From NCBI RefSeq assembly GCF_000011805.1, contig NC_006840.2: 32,000 bases of DNA; one strand, 5' to 3'. Of this stretch, positions 9,415-18,025 are shown piece by piece (the stretch's first letter is position 1; every line of letters starts with the position of its first letter). The notes under the pieces were generated by a model, which saw only the letters and a program-made list of their open reading frames with translations, did no database searches and had not been told where the DNA came from. The translations under genes and the position numbers were made by a program. The DNA is from Aliivibrio fischeri ES114. Its GTDB lineage: Bacteria > Pseudomonadota > Gammaproteobacteria > Enterobacterales > Vibrionaceae.

Positions 9415-10164
9415 ATGAACAAATTTAATATTGAAAATCTAGACCTTTTTTACGGACAAAACCAGGCGCTTAAAAACATCAATTTGCCAATTCCCGCAAA
9501 ACAAGTAACAGCATTAATTGGCCCTTCTGGCTGTGGTAAATCAACATTGTTACGTTGTTTAAACCGAATGAATGATTTGATTGAAGGCGTAAAAATCACA
9601 GGTCTTGTTAACCTTGATGGTAACGACATTTACGGAAACATTGATGTAGCAGATCTTCGTATCAAAGTAGGTATGGTATTCCAAAAAGCAAACCCATTCC
9701 CAATGAGCATTTACGAGAACGTTGCTTATGGTTTAAAAGCTCAAGGTGTAAAAGATAAGAAAGTGCTAGATGCAGTAGTCGAGAAATCATTACGTGGTGC
9801 AGCACTATGGGATGAAGTGAAAGATCGTCTTAAATCTCACGCTTTTGGTCTATCAGGTGGTCAACAACAACGTCTTTGTATTGCTCGTACCATTGCAATG
9901 GAACCAGATGTAATCCTAATGGACGAACCAACCTCTGCTCTTGACCCAATTGCAACGCATAAAGTGGAAGAGTTAATGGAAACACTCAAAAAAGATTACA
10001 CCATTGTTATCGTAACTCACTCAATGCAACAAGCTCGTCGTATCTCAGATAAAACTGCCTTCTTCTTAATGGGTGAACTTGTTGAGCACGATGACACACA
10101 AATCATTTTCTCTAATCCAAAAGATGACCGTACACAAGGTTATGTTAACGGTGATTTTGGTTAA
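9415..10164 (+). CDS. pstB: Phosphate ABC transporter ATP-binding protein PstB
   Basis: Walker [13 protein letters not shown] signature LSGGQQQRL, Walker [20 protein letters not shown] precedes the ATG. Confidence 0.96.
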
Positions 10165-10202
10165 TTGATTCAAAGAATAATAACAAAGCGATGGAAACTC
10201 TT

Positions 10203-10226
10203 GCCCCTCTAGTTAGGGGCTTTTTT
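10203..10226 (+). terminator. Rho-independent terminator of the pst operon
   Basis: Stem gcccct (10203-10208) / aggggc (10215-10220) followed by TTTTTT (10221-10226). Confidence 0.8.
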
Positions 10227-10288
10227 ATGTTATAACCTTATGTTTTTAATGAATTAATAAGCTCGTTCGCCCACATATTGACCACGAG

Positions 10289-11116
10289 TTATAATTCATA
10301 TTTCTTAAAATAATATAAATTTCGATTATATCTACCTACATAAGGAGCTTTATTTCGCCATGCCGAAGGATGAGAGGTTTTATATATCAAGGTTTCAGTA
10401 TTGTTATACACAGAATCAATCACGTACATAACCAGACCAGATAAGCTAATATCTCCCATAAAAATCAGAGGGGTTTCAATGTCATCTAAACGCTGAGTTT
10501 CTACATACTGGAATTCTTTTTCTAATAGTTCTCTAAAATTCCGATGGAACACACTTCTATTCGTTCCATCGACAGCCCCTTTCATTGTTAATTCACCAGA
10601 ATCCGCTTTTAAATAGAAGTCACCTGTAGTACAAGCATTTATAATTGCAATAGGATTCCAATTTTGAATTCGTCTCTCAAAATAGTCCATTCTATTTGGC
10701 CAAAGCTTAATAAAATTTCTAGTTCTCAATCGTTTTGGGTTCTGTCCTTCAGAGCACTGTTCTTGTAACGCATTAATAACGACTAAAGGATATAATCCAT
10801 CAGGCAACGTTATTGATAATTTTTGTAAAATATACAGTCCATATTCTTCAATTTTACTGCCAGAAAAACCATTAACAGGCCGTGAATTTACAGGTAAGCC
10901 CGTCGTTAAGTCTTTTAAGCCATTGACGACAAACTCATCAACATGAGGGCTTTCTGTCACAATAAGAATTGGTCGTTGGTATATATTTATATGTTTTTGG
11001 TATTCATTCAAACCAACAAAAATACTTTTATGATTTAAAGTTCTCCTAAACTGGATATTGCTATTTTTTACTACAAAAACACCAAATATTTCATCATCAC
11101 AAACTTTAAATTTCAT
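10289..11116 (-). CDS. Hypothetical protein with an ordered uracil-DNA-glycosylase-superfamily-like motif set (orphan gene)
   Basis: 275-aa ORF with SD AGGTG 6 nt before the ATG at 11116 (the track GTG at 11125 lies inside the SD). Motifs occur in UDG order: ILIVTESPH, RPVNGFSGSKI, LVVINALQEQC, IAIINACTTG, YKTSHPSAWRN. The coding call is solid; the function is inferred from motif resemblance only. Confidence 0.75.
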   Translation of the reverse strand: MKFKVCDDEIFGVFVVKNSNIQFRRTLNHKSIFVGLNEYQKHINIYQRPILIVTESPHVDEFVVNGLKDLTTGLPVNSRPVNGFSGSKIEEYGLYILQKLSITLPDGLYPLVVINALQEQCSEGQNPKRLRTRNFIKLWPNRMDYFERRIQNWNPIAIINACTTGDFYLKADSGELTMKGAVDGTNRSVFHRNFRELLEKEFQYVETQRLDDIETPLIFMGDISLSGLVMYVIDSVYNNTETLIYKTSHPSAWRNKAPYVGRYNRNLYYFKKYEL

Positions 11117-11386
11117 AAATAACACCTAACCACGAACATAATAGAAAAACGTTGAACACCATAAACGGTTACACTTCTTCTGAATGATCAAATATTACAT
11201 TAGTAATATAAGACTAATATGCTGAAAAATTCACATATTAAGCATTACGTCTAAAAACTCGCTCCGCTTTAAAGACCTAATAGTTGTATTTTTTGTTAAA
11301 ACATGTAACCGAATGGTTATTTTAATGGACTTGTTATATCAAATATGAATAATAGACTCAACTACATTGAAATTACGGATAATTAT

Positions 11387-11977
11387 ATGAAGTTATTGAG
11401 TTTTCTATTATTTATTTTCTTTTCTATTTCAGCTCATGCTGATAAGTCAGGGTATTACATAACGACTAACCTAGAAAATTCTTCTGTTACTTTTCTTGGC
11501 GTTCAAACCGATCTCGATCAAGGTTATAACATTAAAGGAGGTTATGACTTTCCTATCAGTGAAACCTTTTATATGTCTGTTGAACTAGAATACAACAACA
11601 TGGGAGCCTTCGATTACGATTGGGCTGATGATAACGAATTTGCCAAAAGTCATATTGATGCACACTTCTTCGGCGCTAATTTGAAGTATCGAGCTTATGT
11701 TTTTGACTCCGACTTTTTCATCACCAGTATGTTTGGTTACGGTTATTATTATTTAGATATGGATGTTAACTTCTATCTAGAAGATGGTGGAAAAGGCTAT
11801 ATCGCAAATGGTTCTCAAAGCCGCAGTGCTCTTGGCTTATCTTATGGTTTTGAAGCCGGTTATGATTTTACTGAACACCTTGCTTTAACTGTCGGTCACA
11901 ATATTGCTAGAGCTATCATGGATGGTATTGGTTACGACTTTGGTACGTCATACCTAGGTTTAAGTTATAAATTCTAA
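11387..11977 (+). CDS. Small outer-membrane beta-barrel protein (OmpX/OmpW-size, OMP_b-brl-like)
   Basis: Signal peptide MKLLSFLLFIFFSISAHA|D, alternating aromatic/Gly beta-strand pattern, and C-terminal ...YLGLSYKF ending in Phe. I prefer the ATG at 11387 over the track start at 11345 because the signal peptide begins there. Confidence 0.8.
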   Translation: MKLLSFLLFIFFSISAHADKSGYYITTNLENSSVTFLGVQTDLDQGYNIKGGYDFPISETFYMSVELEYNNMGAFDYDWADDNEFAKSHIDAHFFGANLKYRAYVFDSDFFITSMFGYGYYYLDMDVNFYLEDGGKGYIANGSQSRSALGLSYGFEAGYDFTEHLALTVGHNIARAIMDGIGYDFGTSYLGLSYKF

Positions 11978-12029
11978 CTTTCTCCCGACATAACAAGTTG
12001 TTTGGATCATTTCATTCCATTTAAAATAT

Positions 12030-12066
12030 GAGTACACTTGTTTTAATTATTACAACAGGTGTACTC
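12030..12066 (+). promoter_or_regulatory. 12-bp hairpin whose 3' arm contains the yccT Shine-Dalgarno sequence
   Basis: gagtacacttgt (12030-12041) pairs with acaggtgtactc (12055-12066): 11 Watson-Crick pairs plus 1 G-U, with a 13-nt AU loop. The SD AGGTG (12057-12061) is inside the stem and the ATG is at 12069. No T-run follows, so it is not a terminator. Confidence 0.5.
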
Positions 12067-12068
12067 CT

Positions 12069-12698
12069 ATGAAAATACAATCTATTTTTGCTGCTAGCTT
12101 CTGTCTTCTTTCATCTATTTCAGCACATGCGGCCATTCAATTAACTGTACCTGACGAAGTTGAACTGATTCTTGTTGATAACCAAGAAGTAAAGCTTGAG
12201 AGCTCATTCTTTTCTACTACATCAACGCTTGATTTAGAAAATGGTAAACATCAAATTGTTTTTAGATATAACCCTGTATTCAAGCAAGGTAAAGATAACA
12301 TCATTGTATCAAGCGACATCATCGTCTCGACATTTTCTGCAGAAGATAAAGAAATAAGCTTTAAGTTCCCAACCTATAACTCTCCTGAAAAAGCTAAAGC
12401 ATTTAATCGCGATCTAAATTGGGAGTTAATAGATAAAAACAATAATAGTATTCCTTTCGCTCAGTCACAATTGATCTACAACGGAATGCAAGTTGGTCGA
12501 AATATTCAATTCGAAGTCGCAAAATTTAATACTACAGAGCACCCTGCTGCCTTTAAAGAAGGTATGGTTACCGTAACTCATAAAGAAATTAAAAATGAGC
12601 AAGGTGATAATACAGCAGAACAAATGCTGCATTATTGGTATGAGAAAGCCGATCAAGCTACAAAAGAACGCTTCTTAAAATCAATTACTAATAAGTAA
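12069..12698 (+). CDS. yccT: UPF0319/DUF2057 periplasmic protein YccT
   Basis: Signal peptide MKIQSIFAASFCLLSSISAHA|A. The C-terminal EQMLHYWYEKADQATKERFLKSI resembles recalled E. coli YccT ([23 protein letters not shown]). Confidence 0.85.
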   Translation: MKIQSIFAASFCLLSSISAHAAIQLTVPDEVELILVDNQEVKLESSFFSTTSTLDLENGKHQIVFRYNPVFKQGKDNIIVSSDIIVSTFSAEDKEISFKFPTYNSPEKAKAFNRDLNWELIDKNNNSIPFAQSQLIYNGMQVGRNIQFEVAKFNTTEHPAAFKEGMVTVTHKEIKNEQGDNTAEQMLHYWYEKADQATKERFLKSITNK

Positions 12699-12722
12699 AT
12701 TTATCCACATCAAAGGAATTGT

Positions 12723-13118
12723 ATGGGTAAAAATGGACTTGGATTTACCTTAATCGAACTCGTTATTGCGATTACTGTTGCGGCAGTAATTGCAATTATC
12801 GCTATTCCAAAATTTTTTAGCTACACCTCAGAATCCTATATTGCTCAAGCAGAAGGGATTGCTCAAAATTTTGAACAAAGTGTTCGATTAACCCAATATC
12901 GCTGGATTGCTAATGGCAATTTACAGTCAGGAAATGATGTTCAAGGTTTTGCTAATGATCAACTTGATGTAAACCTAAATGGCTTTCCTATTGGTATTAA
13001 TAAAAACAACCCAATGGCACAACCAAATAACATTGGTAGAGGTAAAAAAGGGTGTAATGATCTTTGGAATACACTCTTAATTGATCCACCTAGTGTTTCT
13101 CATAAAAAAAAAGACTGA
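12723..13118 (+). CDS. Type IV pilin-like protein (prepilin N-terminal cleavage/methylation domain), apparently truncated at an A9 run
   Basis: MGKNGLG|FTLIELVIAITVAAVIAIIAIP is a classic prepilin peptidase site with Glu+5. SD GGA lies upstream. The ORF ends at TGA 13116-13118, directly after the homopolymer. Confidence 0.85.
   Translation: MGKNGLGFTLIELVIAITVAAVIAIIAIPKFFSYTSESYIAQAEGIAQNFEQSVRLTQYRWIANGNLQSGNDVQGFANDQLDVNLNGFPIGINKNNPMAQPNNIGRGKKGCNDLWNTLLIDPPSVSHKKKD
13104..13112 (+). repeat. A9 homopolymer at the pilin frame break
   Basis: Nine consecutive A, counted in the sequence (cat aaaaaaaaa gac). Confidence 0.95.
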
Positions 13119-15106: not shown

Positions 15107-18025
15107 TTATTTAAAAAAAGCATCCAGTGCCAAAATAGCAGCGCCATAAACCTGACTTATTTCGTCATTTCTGCACAAAGATATATCGTTATTTTTACCA
15201 TATTGCTCATATTGGTGACATAACGTATGTAGCTGCATTAAGCCCATACTACCTGCCGAACCTTTTAGTTTATGAGCCAATTGATTCACTTGATAACAAT
15301 CTTGATTTGAAATTGCCGTTTGTAACTCCTCTAAATTTTCTTTAGAAGACGTTTTAAAAACACCGACAATTTTACGCATTCGGTCTTCACCTAATACGTT
15401 AATATCACCTTGCAATACTTTTTCATTTAATATCATTTCATTTTCCTCTGTTTCGATTCCAGCTTCCATCTCTAGTTGTAAACTCGGAATAATGACGGGA
15501 GCTTTCAAATTTGACTTCCCATCATTTAAGATGCGATTCAATGTGCTTACTAATTGATTTTCAACCAATGGTTTTGCTAAAAAGCCATTAAAACCGGCAG
15601 AAAGATAACTCTCTACATCTTCATGAAAAACATGTGCCGAAACCGCTAACATTGGGAGTTCGTCTTGGTGGTCGTCTTTTGTCGCATAAATTTCTCTTAG
15701 ACGTTTTTGTAAGGTCACACCATCCGTATCAGGTAAATTAATATCTAACAGAAGTAAATCAAATTGATGCTTTTCAATGGCTTCTTCGGCTTTTTTACCT
15801 GTATCTACAGCAATAACATGATGTCCTAGGCGTTCTAGAAAACCAATGGCAACCATCTGATTGACTGGATTATCTTCCACTAAAAGAATATTAACAGGTG
15901 CGATATCTATTGCTGTTTTATCATCACTCAATGATTCAACAGGCTGACCTTCATCAAGCTCAAGGGAGAACCAAAATGTACTACCTTGACCTTCTATAGA
16001 TTCGACACCAATCTCGCCATCCATCGCTTCAATTAGGCGTTGACTAATGGCTAAACCCAACCCTGTTCCACCACTAACTTTCATACCCTCTTCAGCTTGA
16101 GTGAATACATCGAATAAAGTATCTATTTCATGCTCAGCAATCCCAACACCAGTATCAATGACTTCAAATAAAAGCGTTGTATCCAAAATAAGGCTTAACT
16201 GAATTGTTACGCTACCTGTATGAGTAAATTTAATTGCATTCCCTACAAAGTTATTTAATACCTGACGAATGCGTGAACAATCACCGCTCCACCACTCAGG
16301 GGTATCAACAGGCACATTAACCGATAATGTAATTCCTTTTTGTTGAGCTCGAGAGCTAAATAAATGATGTACATCCGTAATCATTGATTGAACGCTAAAG
16401 TTCTTCTTACGAATAGATAAATGTCCAGCTTCAATTTTTGAGTAATCCAGTATGTCATTCAATAAATCCAATAAGTTTTCACCACTACGGTTAATGATAT
16501 CAACATACTGTTTTTGTTGAGCAGTTAAACCGCTCCCACGAAGCAGCTCACCGGTTCCAAGTACACCATTTAAAGGAGTTCGAATTTCATGGCTCATAGT
16601 TGCAAGGAACGCTGATTTTGCTCTGTTTGCTTGTTCAGCAAGATCCCTTGCTTTATCGTGGTTAATAATCTCGACATTAAGTCGCTCATTACTCGACTTA
16701 AGCTCTTGGGTTCGTTGTGCTATTTGTAATTCTAAGCTGTCTTTATATTCTTTCAGTTCTTGAGCTGTATCCCTGGCAATAAGAATTGAACGTCCCATAC
16801 GAGCTAACTCATCGTCACCAGTAGTATCCAATTCTATATCTAATTGACCATTAGCTACGTTCGTGATTGCTTCTTCATATTGATTTAATCGTGTAATCAC
16901 ACGTGCATAAACATAACGCCACATGATGTAGATAACTAGGCATAGGCCAAGCATTGTTATTGATATCAATAATTGCTGTACGACTTTCAATACAAAGTTA
17001 ACATCAGCGACCGCTTGTTGAGTTACATCATTTGCCTGTTCAAGTAATTGTGAAATAGTTAAATTAAGCTCTTGAAATTTATGAACGTTTTCATCACCTA
17101 ACAACTTTAGCTTTTGATTTATATTAACCAGCTGAATTAATTCATTAAACAAACGCTCACTCTTCGTTAAATCATTAGCTAGATCAAGCATTTGTTTTGT
17201 TCGACTTGGATCTTCTACCGCTTGCACCCTACGAGTTATAATGGTCATATCTCGAGTAAAATCTTGTCTTAACTTCTCTATTTTTTTGATGTTATGACTG
17301 TTTCTTGCATCATCTATCGTATTGACCACTTTAAAGGTAAGTAAGCGTAATTCATGCAAACGCTCTGCTAAATCCAAATCCGTTTCTACCAGAGTATCCA
17401 ATGCTTTATAAACCGCTTCTTTTTCGCCATTTTCAACTAAATCATATATTTTCACGACATTAGCTATCGTAACGGTATTTGAATTTAATACTTGCGAGCG
17501 TGATAACTCCTCCAAACGAAGAGCGGTTTCTGTTAACTTCTGGCTCTTCTCTTGAATCGTTCGATGCAGGACTACTTTCTCACCAACGCTTTCACCCATT
17601 GTTGCCAAATTATCGACAATGTCTTGAACTTGAAGATCTAAACGAGCTAATAATGCTTTATCAAATGGATAGACACCGAGACCTTTTAAACGGTGATATA
17701 GACTCTCTATCGACTCAAACAGGTCTTTGCCGTATTTTTTTCTATCGTCTTCAGAATCTACTTGTGAGAGTAATTGAGATGTTGAAATGATCTTTGTGCT
17801 TAAATCTGAAATGTAACGCGCTTCAATAACGGCAGGTATTGCCGAATCAATTACCGTTCTTTCTGTTTTTTCTACGTATGAAAAGCCAAGAACACCAACA
17901 ACCGATCCAAATGCCATAAGCGCAATCATCACCATGAATGTGATAAGCAGCTTGCGACCGATCCCTGTAGAAGCAAATAACATAATATTGAAACACTTTG
18001 GAAAAAGAAGTAATGCGGGTATCAT
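15107..18025 (-). CDS. torS: Hybrid sensor histidine kinase TorS (HisKA-HATPase-REC-HPt)
   Basis: H-box SHEIRTPLNG, G-boxes (DTGVGI, GGTGLGLAI), a receiver domain (LLLDINLPDTDG) and a C-terminal HPt (AHKLKGSAGSMG). It is divergent from torT and its architecture is colinear with recalled E. coli TorS. An alternative start is the ATG at 17983 (MLFAST...). Confidence 0.88.
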   Translation of the reverse strand: MIPALLLFPKCFNIMLFASTGIGRKLLITFMVMIALMAFGSVVGVLGFSYVEKTERTVIDSAIPAVIEARYISDLSTKIISTSQLLSQVDSEDDRKKYGKDLFESIESLYHRLKGLGVYPFDKALLARLDLQVQDIVDNLATMGESVGEKVVLHRTIQEKSQKLTETALRLEELSRSQVLNSNTVTIANVVKIYDLVENGEKEAVYKALDTLVETDLDLAERLHELRLLTFKVVNTIDDARNSHNIKKIEKLRQDFTRDMTIITRRVQAVEDPSRTKQMLDLANDLTKSERLFNELIQLVNINQKLKLLGDENVHKFQELNLTISQLLEQANDVTQQAVADVNFVLKVVQQLLISITMLGLCLVIYIMWRYVYARVITRLNQYEEAITNVANGQLDIELDTTGDDELARMGRSILIARDTAQELKEYKDSLELQIAQRTQELKSSNERLNVEIINHDKARDLAEQANRAKSAFLATMSHEIRTPLNGVLGTGELLRGSGLTAQQKQYVDIINRSGENLLDLLNDILDYSKIEAGHLSIRKKNFSVQSMITDVHHLFSSRAQQKGITLSVNVPVDTPEWWSGDCSRIRQVLNNFVGNAIKFTHTGSVTIQLSLILDTTLLFEVIDTGVGIAEHEIDTLFDVFTQAEEGMKVSGGTGLGLAISQRLIEAMDGEIGVESIEGQGSTFWFSLELDEGQPVESLSDDKTAIDIAPVNILLVEDNPVNQMVAIGFLERLGHHVIAVDTGKKAEEAIEKHQFDLLLLDINLPDTDGVTLQKRLREIYATKDDHQDELPMLAVSAHVFHEDVESYLSAGFNGFLAKPLVENQLVSTLNRILNDGKSNLKAPVIIPSLQLEMEAGIETEENEMILNEKVLQGDINVLGEDRMRKIVGVFKTSSKENLEELQTAISNQDCYQVNQLAHKLKGSAGSMGLMQLHTLCHQYEQYGKNNDISLCRNDEISQVYGAAILALDAFFK

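Follow-up and report, generated by a model that had tools for sequence, protein, structure and literature searches.

Stand-alone glycosylases that destroy phages through excision of their modified bases have been recognized only in 2024-2026 (Brig1, the Dag families, Brig2 and Brig3), and the substrate differs from family to family. Single-gene defense glycosylases of the UDG (uracil-DNA glycosylase) superfamily now form a known kind of system, represented by Brig1 (2024), Brig2 (2025) and Brig3 (2026), which were found by function or by structure and not from sequence. Brig1 targets alpha-glucosyl-5-hydroxymethylcytosine, and family-4 UDGs come nearest to it among solved structures (Hossain et al. 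2024, PMC11078745). Brig2 acts against phages whose DNA has hypermodified thymidine and is reported with ten further UDG-like clusters from Vibrionaceae integrons; six of the seven candidates tested from those integrons were inactive against the phages used (Getz et al. 2025, bioRxiv 10.1101/2025.10.29.685425). Here we analyze a stretch of 32,000 nucleotides from Aliivibrio fischeri ES114 (assembly GCF_000011805.1, contig NC_006840.2; hereafter the window) and one gene in it, VF_1614, which an earlier note made from the letters alone had read as a UDG-like defense factor or repair enzyme. That interpretation is supported by our analysis, though not proven. The reading we favor, and hold with about even confidence, is that VF_1614 is a stand-alone UDG-fold glycosylase that acts in anti-phage base excision and was acquired as an insertion of about 1 kb in a defense hotspot.

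Family, motifs and predicted fold of VF_1614

The VF_1614 coding sequence occupies 10289..11116 on the minus strand and encodes 275 amino acids from the ATG at 11116, which is the start common to homologs when their N-termini are compared; the open reading frame (ORF) as listed by program is 10289..11125 on the same strand (278 amino acids, GTG start). Residue numbers here refer to the 275-amino-acid protein, in which the pocket residues previously numbered E58, H61 and H252 (correct residues, counted on the GTG form) are E55, H58 and H249. The product of 10289-11116 is identical to VF_1614 / WP_011262179.1 / AAW86109.1, which is 'hypothetical' in all annotation sources. As the earlier note had said, it belongs to no nameable family: no Pfam or PADLOC model matches any of 124 family members, NCBIfam has none for VF_1614, and PDB searches by sequence and by profile (VF_1614, six-sequence and 124-sequence profiles) gave no match. 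With no model in Pfam, NCBIfam or PADLOC, the family is invisible to current defense-finding pipelines.

The gene is nevertheless not the orphan it had been taken for. An exhaustive profile search recovers 947 related 50%-identity clusters at E<=1e-3 (350 at E<=1e-10); a word-indexed search returned only five, at 39-46% identity (Vibrio panuliri, Photobacterium leiognathi and metagenomes), and the matches of a second profile search were named 'hypothetical protein' only and had no precomputed Pfam domains. This family, here called the ESPH family, extends over Proteobacteria, Firmicutes and Bacteroidota-like contigs, and about 148 of the 153 proteins retrieved have the ESPH motif. By tblastn we found no VF_1614 match in 50,697 phage genomes and, among plasmids, one distant homolog, from Cupriavidus.

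Conservation was computed on an alignment of 124 full-length, diverse members that are 22-48% identical to VF_1614. Three residues are invariant (E55, P57 and E61), and S56, H58, P80, G83, G86, N115, Q120, S122, G124, R131, W139, R149, N160, C162, T163, G165, H249 and P250 are conserved in at least 90%. D8 (95%, two positions past C6), W253 (86%) and three Cys, namely C6 (89%; 11099-11101), C121 (88%; 10754-10756) and C162 (94%; 10631-10633), are also strongly kept. The family consensus reads LESPHxDEF ... PAxGxTG ... NAIQYQCSLG..T..yRD..F...W ... IINxCTxG ... HPSSW, and its signatures fall at the following positions of the window:

11093..11101, minus strand: N-terminal C6-D7-D8 (family C-x-D); C6 in 110/124, D8 in 118/124
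10934..10954, minus strand: motif A, E55-S56-P57-H58-V-D-E61, after beta1; S56 and H58 in 123/124
10859..10882, minus strand: R79-P-V-N-G-F-S-G86 loop and helix N-cap, consensus P-A-x-G-x-T-G; P80 in 121/124, G83 in 113/124, G86 in 116/124
10745..10786, minus strand: beta2 and Asn motif, L111-VVINALQEQCSEG-124; N115 in 121/124, Q120 in 119/124, S122 in 123/124, C121 in 109/124
10622..10651, minus strand: beta3 motif, I156-AIINACTTG-165; N160 in 117/124, C162 in 116/124, T163 in 123/124, G165 in 113/124
10358..10372, minus strand: motif B, H249-P-S-A-W253, after beta4; H249 and P250 in 122/124, W253 in 107/124, S/C/A at 251

The five ordered UDG-like motifs that the earlier note had picked out by eye are placed as it described, and all of them are family-wide signatures; its sites hold, except that ILIVTESPH starts at 10969 and not at 10972.

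The AlphaFold model computed from the 124-sequence alignment has a predicted local distance difference test (pLDDT) score of 92.3 and a predicted template modeling score of 0.91 (from six sequences the pLDDT is 72). It begins with a hairpin (9-25), followed by beta1 (50-54), which leads at once into ESPH; a helix (84-99) starts at G-x-S-G, beta2 (107-115) ends in N115 and is followed by a long helix, and after beta3 (157-160) comes an excursion of about 80 residues before beta4 (243-247), which leads at once into HPS. As modeled, this order of elements is the layout of UDG enzymes. UDG-superfamily enzymes make up at least 13 of the 14 best Foldseek matches in the PDB, and enzymes of four families occur in the list: the first is the Thermotoga maritima family-4 UDG (1L9G; E 7e-3, probability 0.90), human TDG takes ranks 2-12, 14, 16-18, 20 and 23, BdiUNG is at rank 13, and vaccinia D4 and SMUG1 stand lower. 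With a second, poorer model, TDG was again the top match, and BdiUNG and MUG recurred; in the BFVD viral library, a phage UDG and the UDG-like domains at the N-termini of phage DNA polymerases are among the best matches.

We then compared the family with family-4 UDGs profile against profile, using the Thermus thermophilus UDG-A sequence (confirmed as 1UI0) and collected family-4 relatives as input to hhalign. The local alignment spans 148 columns and holds all five motifs in colinear register: E55-S-P-H pairs with E41-G-P-G44 of 1UI0 and E61 with E47; R79-P-V-N-G-F-S-G pairs with R52-P-F-V-G-K-A-G; V-I-N115-A-L-Q..C121 with I-T-N80-I-V-K-C84, where C84 is an Fe-S ligand of 1UI0; P-I-A-I-I-N-A-C-T-T-G with P-Q-I-I-V-P-L-G; and S-H249-P-S with F-H155-P-A. 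The score is 20.7, as against 13.6 +/- 2.2 for column-shuffled templates, none of which (0/100) reaches the real score, so that composition alone does not account for the motif resemblance. From the model topology, the consistent structural neighbors and the placement of the motifs, we consider it very probable that VF_1614 has a UDG fold.

Genomic contexts of VF_1614 and its relatives

VF_1614 lies between the pst operon and a divergent gene for an outer-membrane protein (OMP; a PF13505 beta-barrel), at a junction whose features in ES114 are these:

10203..10226, plus strand: pstB intrinsic terminator, a hairpin at 10203-10220 plus a T-run that is the left edge of the insertion
10227..11296, no strand assigned: insertion of about 1.07 kb, from the alignment with empty-site strain L012, with TTTTTT at both edges
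11117..11296, minus strand: AT-rich 5' region, presumed promoter, which arrived with the gene (alignment with L012)
11123..11127, minus strand: Shine-Dalgarno AGGTG, read from the sequence, with a 6-nt spacer to the ATG at 11116
10268..10285, minus strand: 18-nt motif GTGGTCAATATGTGGGCG / GTGRTCRWWRTGTRGGCG in the 3' flank past the VF_1614 stop; 0.03 chance matches expected in the window

Several observations of the earlier note stand at this locus, namely the 275-amino-acid minus-strand ORF with its own Shine-Dalgarno element 6 nt from the ATG, the pst operon terminator (detected as the hairpin plus T-run) and the lack of an operon partner, which we looked for in ES114 and did not find. The AT-rich region shared with the OMP gene is likewise real, with a GC content of 0.265 in 11000-11399, and the intergenic gap measures 228 bp (11117-11344) rather than 260 bp; a scan of the minus-strand 5' region of VF_1614 (11117..11296) gave no sigma-70 consensus match. 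The gene had been called visibly more AT-rich than pstB, and the computed values agree: its GC content of 0.324 is the lowest among the 25 genes of the window (mean 0.382, standard deviation 0.024; pstB 0.383), and at third codon positions GC is 0.239, compared with 0.281 +/- 0.027 for the genes of the window. GC is likewise low, at 0.34-0.35, in the genes at 11345-13118 (OMP beta-barrel, DUF2057 and a pilin-like N_methyl protein), and the presence of the OMP and pilin-like genes varies among Aliivibrio species.

We surveyed the junction across species with the DUF2057 protein as anchor, one genome per species, and then by tblastn; within A. fischeri we looked up the exact PstB. The OMP gene comes straight after pstB in A. 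sifiae, A. logei and Aliivibrio sp. 1S175; in A. finisterrensis and others DUF2057 does so, and Aliivibrio sp. EL58 and S3MY1 have lplA, on the minus strand, in the gap. VF_1614 is present in none of them. Within A. fischeri, the junction is empty at five loci (L012, L034, L037, L039 and L041), which rules out a core, species-wide gene, and VF_1614 stands alone there in L035, L038 and ES114. A frameshifted VF_1614 in one strain (L042 3875-4703, GCA_051906275.1; annotated as 161 plus 122 amino acids) indicates that the gene is dispensable. Elsewhere the junction holds a type II restriction-modification system (L040: a C5 DNA methyltransferase, confirmed by PADLOC, and a MvaI/BcnI-family endonuclease) or unrelated genes (L036); in MJ11-type strains VF_1614 is followed by four genes, three of which match the candidate system PDC-M60 A/B/C (PADLOC, E 3e-32, 1e-28 and 1e-14), and in L038 a SIR2_2-STALD gene lies just past the OMP gene. 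The A. fischeri junction 3' of pstB (10165-11344; L012, L033-L045) is a strain-variable defense hotspot in a well-studied symbiont. A gene of host-like composition at this junction in all relatives, the observation that the earlier note had named as contrary to its proposal, is not what we see: VF_1614 is absent from several A. fischeri and from all other Aliivibrio examined.

As to how the gene arrived, no terminal inverted repeats and no attC-like site were found at the insertion. We rejected a transposon origin on the first ground, and an integron-cassette origin because the window has neither an attC-like repeat nor a G|TT junction; the flanking TTTTTT could represent either a duplicated target or no more than microhomology at the T-run of the terminator. 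The 18-nt motif could be a recombination or deletion site. In L043, an MJ11-type locus, it occurs at 10832-10849 and 16887-16904 as direct repeats bracketing the PDC-M60 module of about 6 kb, the recurring copy being at the end of the module nearer pstB. The ES114 arrangement may therefore have arisen by deletion from a larger island, or MJ11 may have acquired a second module there.

VF_1614 is a real gene under purifying selection (ratio of non-synonymous to synonymous substitution rates [dN/dS] 0.18 between the ES114 and MJ11 alleles, with 11 synonymous and 8 non-synonymous changes). Between the same strains its dS is 0.067, compared with 0.178 for the adjacent pstB (9415-10164), these being small counts; a low dS beside a low dN/dS fits a gene that has a function and was transferred within the species after its flank had diverged, and suggests that VF_1614 was probably shared within the species more recently than that flank.

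The neighborhoods of distant relatives, like the junction itself, are rich in defense genes, in agreement with the earlier description of an accessory gene. In two cases from Clostridium (L009, L011) the homolog is placed between hsdM/hsdS and hsdR of a type I restriction-modification operon, one of them adjoining an AAA_15/AAA_21 ATPase, and another homolog (L010) has as neighbors CTD6/MC2 domains of conflict systems, PemK and a type III restriction helicase. In C. tyrobutyricum (L005 8001-10428, and L006) the ESPH gene sits past serine recombinases at a prophage end and is followed by conserved 383-amino-acid and approximately 140-amino-acid genes, a Dam methylase and transposases; the same arrangement is found on a viral contig in IMG/VR (L046 5896-8335), and the trio of ESPH, 383-amino-acid and approximately 140-amino-acid genes may be a three-gene variant. 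On a contig with a Por secretion-tail gene the homolog comes after GmrSD_N and HEPN genes, the Cupriavidus plasmid homolog adjoins toxin-antitoxin genes, and that of V. panuliri adjoins an IS110 transposase. The P. leiognathi homolog lies about 3 kb past an integron array and has no flanking attC of its own. The array (L003 2525-4977) is part of the chromosome and is a small integron; it has three attC-like repeats of 124 nt beside a truncated integrase, and a Mrr-like cassette, and the cassettes of a sister strain (L002) include HNH and SEFIR/TIR proteins.

A metagenome scan added 56 ESPH loci, from 22 of which we ran 120 neighboring ORFs against PADLOC. Twelve of the 120 are RtcR-type CARF-AAA-HTH activators (best E 2e-188; RtcR, Sigma54_activat and HTH_8 in Pfam), and single matches were obtained to a CBASS cyclase/E2/4TM effector, a type II restriction endonuclease, AbiD and DRT. 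A compact, 213-amino-acid ESPH gene starts 150-300 bp downstream of the RtcR-like activator on the same strand at 12 or more metagenomic loci (L063-L098). The spacer holds GG-N10-GC elements, found by eye (TGGCATGGATCTCGCA in L078 and TGGCATAAATCTGGCA in L092), and a TGTAAAT...ATTTACA palindrome; a strict scan for TGGCAY-N5-TTGC sigma54 promoters gave nothing relevant. Given its position and the spacer elements, the compact ESPH gene is likely a sigma54 target. The next gene in L078 (6222-9584) encodes a 324-amino-acid coiled-coil protein, which is fused to the ESPH domain in L092 (2266-4961). Other family members are also multi-domain (P0103, P0140, P0019/P0022/P0045/P0048, P0081 and P0058/P0130): P0103 joins a B12-binding radical-SAM domain to the ESPH domain (774 amino acids), P0140 a CoaE/dNK-like P-loop kinase (456 amino acids), some members of about 530 amino acids have an uncharacterized N-terminal domain of about 320, and some carry long, uncharacterized C-terminal extensions.

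Proposed mechanism and competing explanations

The acidic residue of motif A lies two positions before the proline in the ESPH family, unlike in family 1 UDG, where it lies one before. H58 occupies the position directly after that proline, where family 1 UNG has a Tyr that packs against C5 of uracil, and W253, at H+4, has the position of the intercalating Leu in UNG (HPSPL). In family 4 and UdgX the acidic residue is, as here, two before the proline (GE[AGQ]PG; PMC10359453); a motif-A Glu is what family 4 normally has and is not the departure from known families that the earlier note saw in it. Nor is the N-terminal segment of about 50 amino acids simply an extension, as it is conserved, with near-invariant C6 and D8, and a Cys-bearing segment occurs in family 4 as well. 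The insertion between beta3 and beta4, put at about 70 amino acids, is present (about 60) and belongs to the VF_1614 branch only; the compact form lacks it. The invariant E61, at P+4, has the same position as E55 of Brig3, which hydrogen-bonds the 5-hydroxymethyl group (bioRxiv 10.64898/2026.02.25.707755), and Brig1, with a cytosine-derived substrate, has a Glu in place of the beta2 Asn (PMC11078745). Unlike Brig1 with its Glu, VF_1614 keeps the beta2 Asn as well as the motif-B His, which hints that it may act on a uracil- or thymine-type base. A variant metal site is suggested by the three conserved Cys, one of which aligns to an Fe-S ligand of family 4.

We infer the catalysis, the substrate class and the defense phenotype of VF_1614, taking UDG families 1 and 4, Brig1 and Brig3 as analogs for its mechanism. 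VF_1614 would be a horizontally acquired, monofunctional DNA glycosylase. While scanning DNA it would flip out a non-canonical pyrimidine, which would enter a pocket made of the post-beta1 loop (E55-S-P-H58..E61), the P80-x-x-G-x-S-G86 loop, N115 and H249 of the HPS loop. E55 would position or activate the attacking water, H249 would stabilize the leaving base and W253 would plug the gap in the helix. The resulting abasic sites would block phage DNA replication, and host DNA, having no modified base, would be spared.

A number of results weigh against this reading of VF_1614 as a base-excision defense glycosylase. The Foldseek scores in the PDB are weak (best E 7e-3, above 1e-3; template modeling scores 0.28-0.44; root mean square deviation about 10 A); the UDG-fold top match anticipated in the earlier note was obtained, at these scores. 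As to profile searches, the Pfam UDG model (PF03167) matches 0/124 members, and hhalign, which does bring the family into register with family 4, gives an alignment that is not significant (P 0.03, probability 1.6%). When templates were shuffled in 12-column blocks, which keeps the motifs and loses their order, the scores rose to 18.1 +/- 2.7 and 6/100 reached 20.7; sequence alone therefore supports colinearity only mildly. The position of the family-4 stacking Phe (PFVG) holds Ala (107/124) or Val. Three homolog neighborhoods (L007/L008, L032) contain no defense genes, the immediate neighbors in ES114 are housekeeping genes (pst operon, OMP and DUF2057), and VF_1614 is named nowhere in the literature searched. 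The RtcR link, finally, can be read in two ways, as inducible defense or as support for a role in repair.

Repair is the explanation with which the fold and motif evidence fits equally well: VF_1614 would be a UDG-fold glycosylase for an endogenous damaged or misincorporated base, possibly in stress-induced nucleic-acid repair. The housekeeping genes around it in ES114 fit this too, as does the compact form behind an RtcR-like sigma54 activator with its GG-N10-GC promoter (at least 12 loci), because RtcR, where characterized, is a sensor of damaged tRNA that controls the RNA-repair operon rtcBA (PMC7790460). Repair glycosylases, however, are normally core genes, whereas this gene is low in GC, patchy and strain-variable in distribution, a pseudogene in one strain, and found in restriction-modification operons, at prophage ends and in defense hotspots; genes of types common in conflict systems, namely AAA_15/AAA_21/DUF3696 and trypsin-Sel1, moreover occur at the RtcR-like loci too. 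We consider a repair function unlikely.

Rather improbable, in our judgment, is that the UDG-like fold serves another activity, on RNA, on nucleotides or on a DNA adduct (for example, ADP-ribosylated bases), or as a sensor or partner. The fusions with the CoaE/dNK-like kinase (P0140) and the B12-binding radical-SAM domain (P0103), the fused or adjacent coiled-coil protein (L078/L092), the conserved partner genes in Clostridium, the missing stacking Phe and the three conserved Cys of unassigned role would all suit such an activity; yet the residues of UDG chemistry (the motif-A acid, the beta2 Asn, the motif-B His-Pro-Ser and the bulky residue at H+4) are near-invariant, and most family members are single-domain and stand-alone. 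That the UDG resemblance is convergent or spurious and the protein some other three-layer alpha/beta enzyme we regard as quite improbable, even though every similarity score is below conventional thresholds and GTPases, periplasmic binding domains and dCK are among the weak structural matches, because UDGs of four families top two libraries with two models, the five motifs keep the same order and placement with respect to the four core strands, and column shuffles never reach the real hhalign score.

A wider proposal, which we put forward only tentatively and think somewhat doubtful, is that ESPH...HPS proteins form an undescribed family of the UDG superfamily (about 950 clusters), distinct from families 1-6, UdgX, Brig1, Brig3 and Brig2, with its own Cys3 (plus Asp/His) metal site and a function in modified-pyrimidine base-excision immunity, and that one large subclade is an inducible defense, turned on by an RtcR-like, CARF-type sigma54 activator and so coupled to a sensor of RNA damage. 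Our literature search found no published link of glycosylase immunity to an RtcR-like switch; if confirmed, the link would tie such immunity to a damage-sensing transcription switch. If VF_1614 is active, it would represent a new specificity for base-excision immunity, a testable determinant of phage host range among A. fischeri strains and possibly a new enzyme with which to detect or map a modified base.

Comparison with described systems

The ESPH family shares its motif order with family-4 UDGs (1UI0; 1L9G; Sulfolobus tokodaii 4ZBX/4ZBY; PF03167) and with UdgX. The common pattern consists of E-x-P-x after beta1 (GE[AG]PG in family 4, ESPH here), an [RP]-P-x-x-G-x-[AS]-G loop, N-x-[IV]-[KQ]..C on beta2 and HPS[SA]x after beta4 (UdgX motifs: PMC10359453), and family 4 and VF_1614 both have a Cys-bearing N-terminal segment before beta1. 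VF_1614 differs in that both motif-A Gly are replaced (L/T-E-S-P-H) and the stacking Phe is absent, and in an extra N-terminal beta-hairpin and the insertion of about 60 amino acids between beta3 and beta4. Family 4 has four [4Fe-4S] Cys (C13, C16, C84 and C100 in 1UI0), whereas the ESPH family has three, of which only C121 is aligned with a ligand. Family 4 is, further, a core repair gene, in contrast to VF_1614, an accessory gene of defense islands.

Brig1 resembles VF_1614 as a single gene of about 260 amino acids in the UDG superfamily, with no Pfam match and a place in defense islands. Its motifs are GLNPG and N-F-E, without HPS, and it has only 42 homologs, mostly in Actinobacteria; hhalign of the 124-sequence ESPH alignment with Brig1 gave no meaningful alignment. 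Brig3 (Mejia-Pitta et al. 2026, bioRxiv 10.64898/2026.02.25.707755), a UDG-superfamily defense glycosylase with N-P-S-x-x-E, has a Glu at motif-A P+4 that reads the 5-substituent; compared by description, it differs from the ESPH family in its catalytic residues (N50, D127 and an N225 wedge), in having neither ESPH nor HPS, and in its partner BapA.

As described in the preprint (bioRxiv 10.1101/2025.10.29.685425), Brig2 is UDG-like by structure only, comes from accessory, A/T-rich Vibrionaceae DNA and has hundreds of homologs in Proteobacteria, Firmicutes and Bacteroidetes; this spread, the mobile A/T-rich contexts and the specificity for thymidine derivatives make it compatible with the ESPH family. 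VF_1614, unlike Brig2, lies outside any integron, and the accessions of its relatives have no match in the available parts of the preprint. Comparing the two by description, we think it quite possible, though the less likely outcome, that the ESPH family and the Brig2 family are one and the same. On the reading we favor, VF_1614 would join Brig1, Brig2 and Brig3 as a further variant of base-excision defense, possibly one that already has a name.

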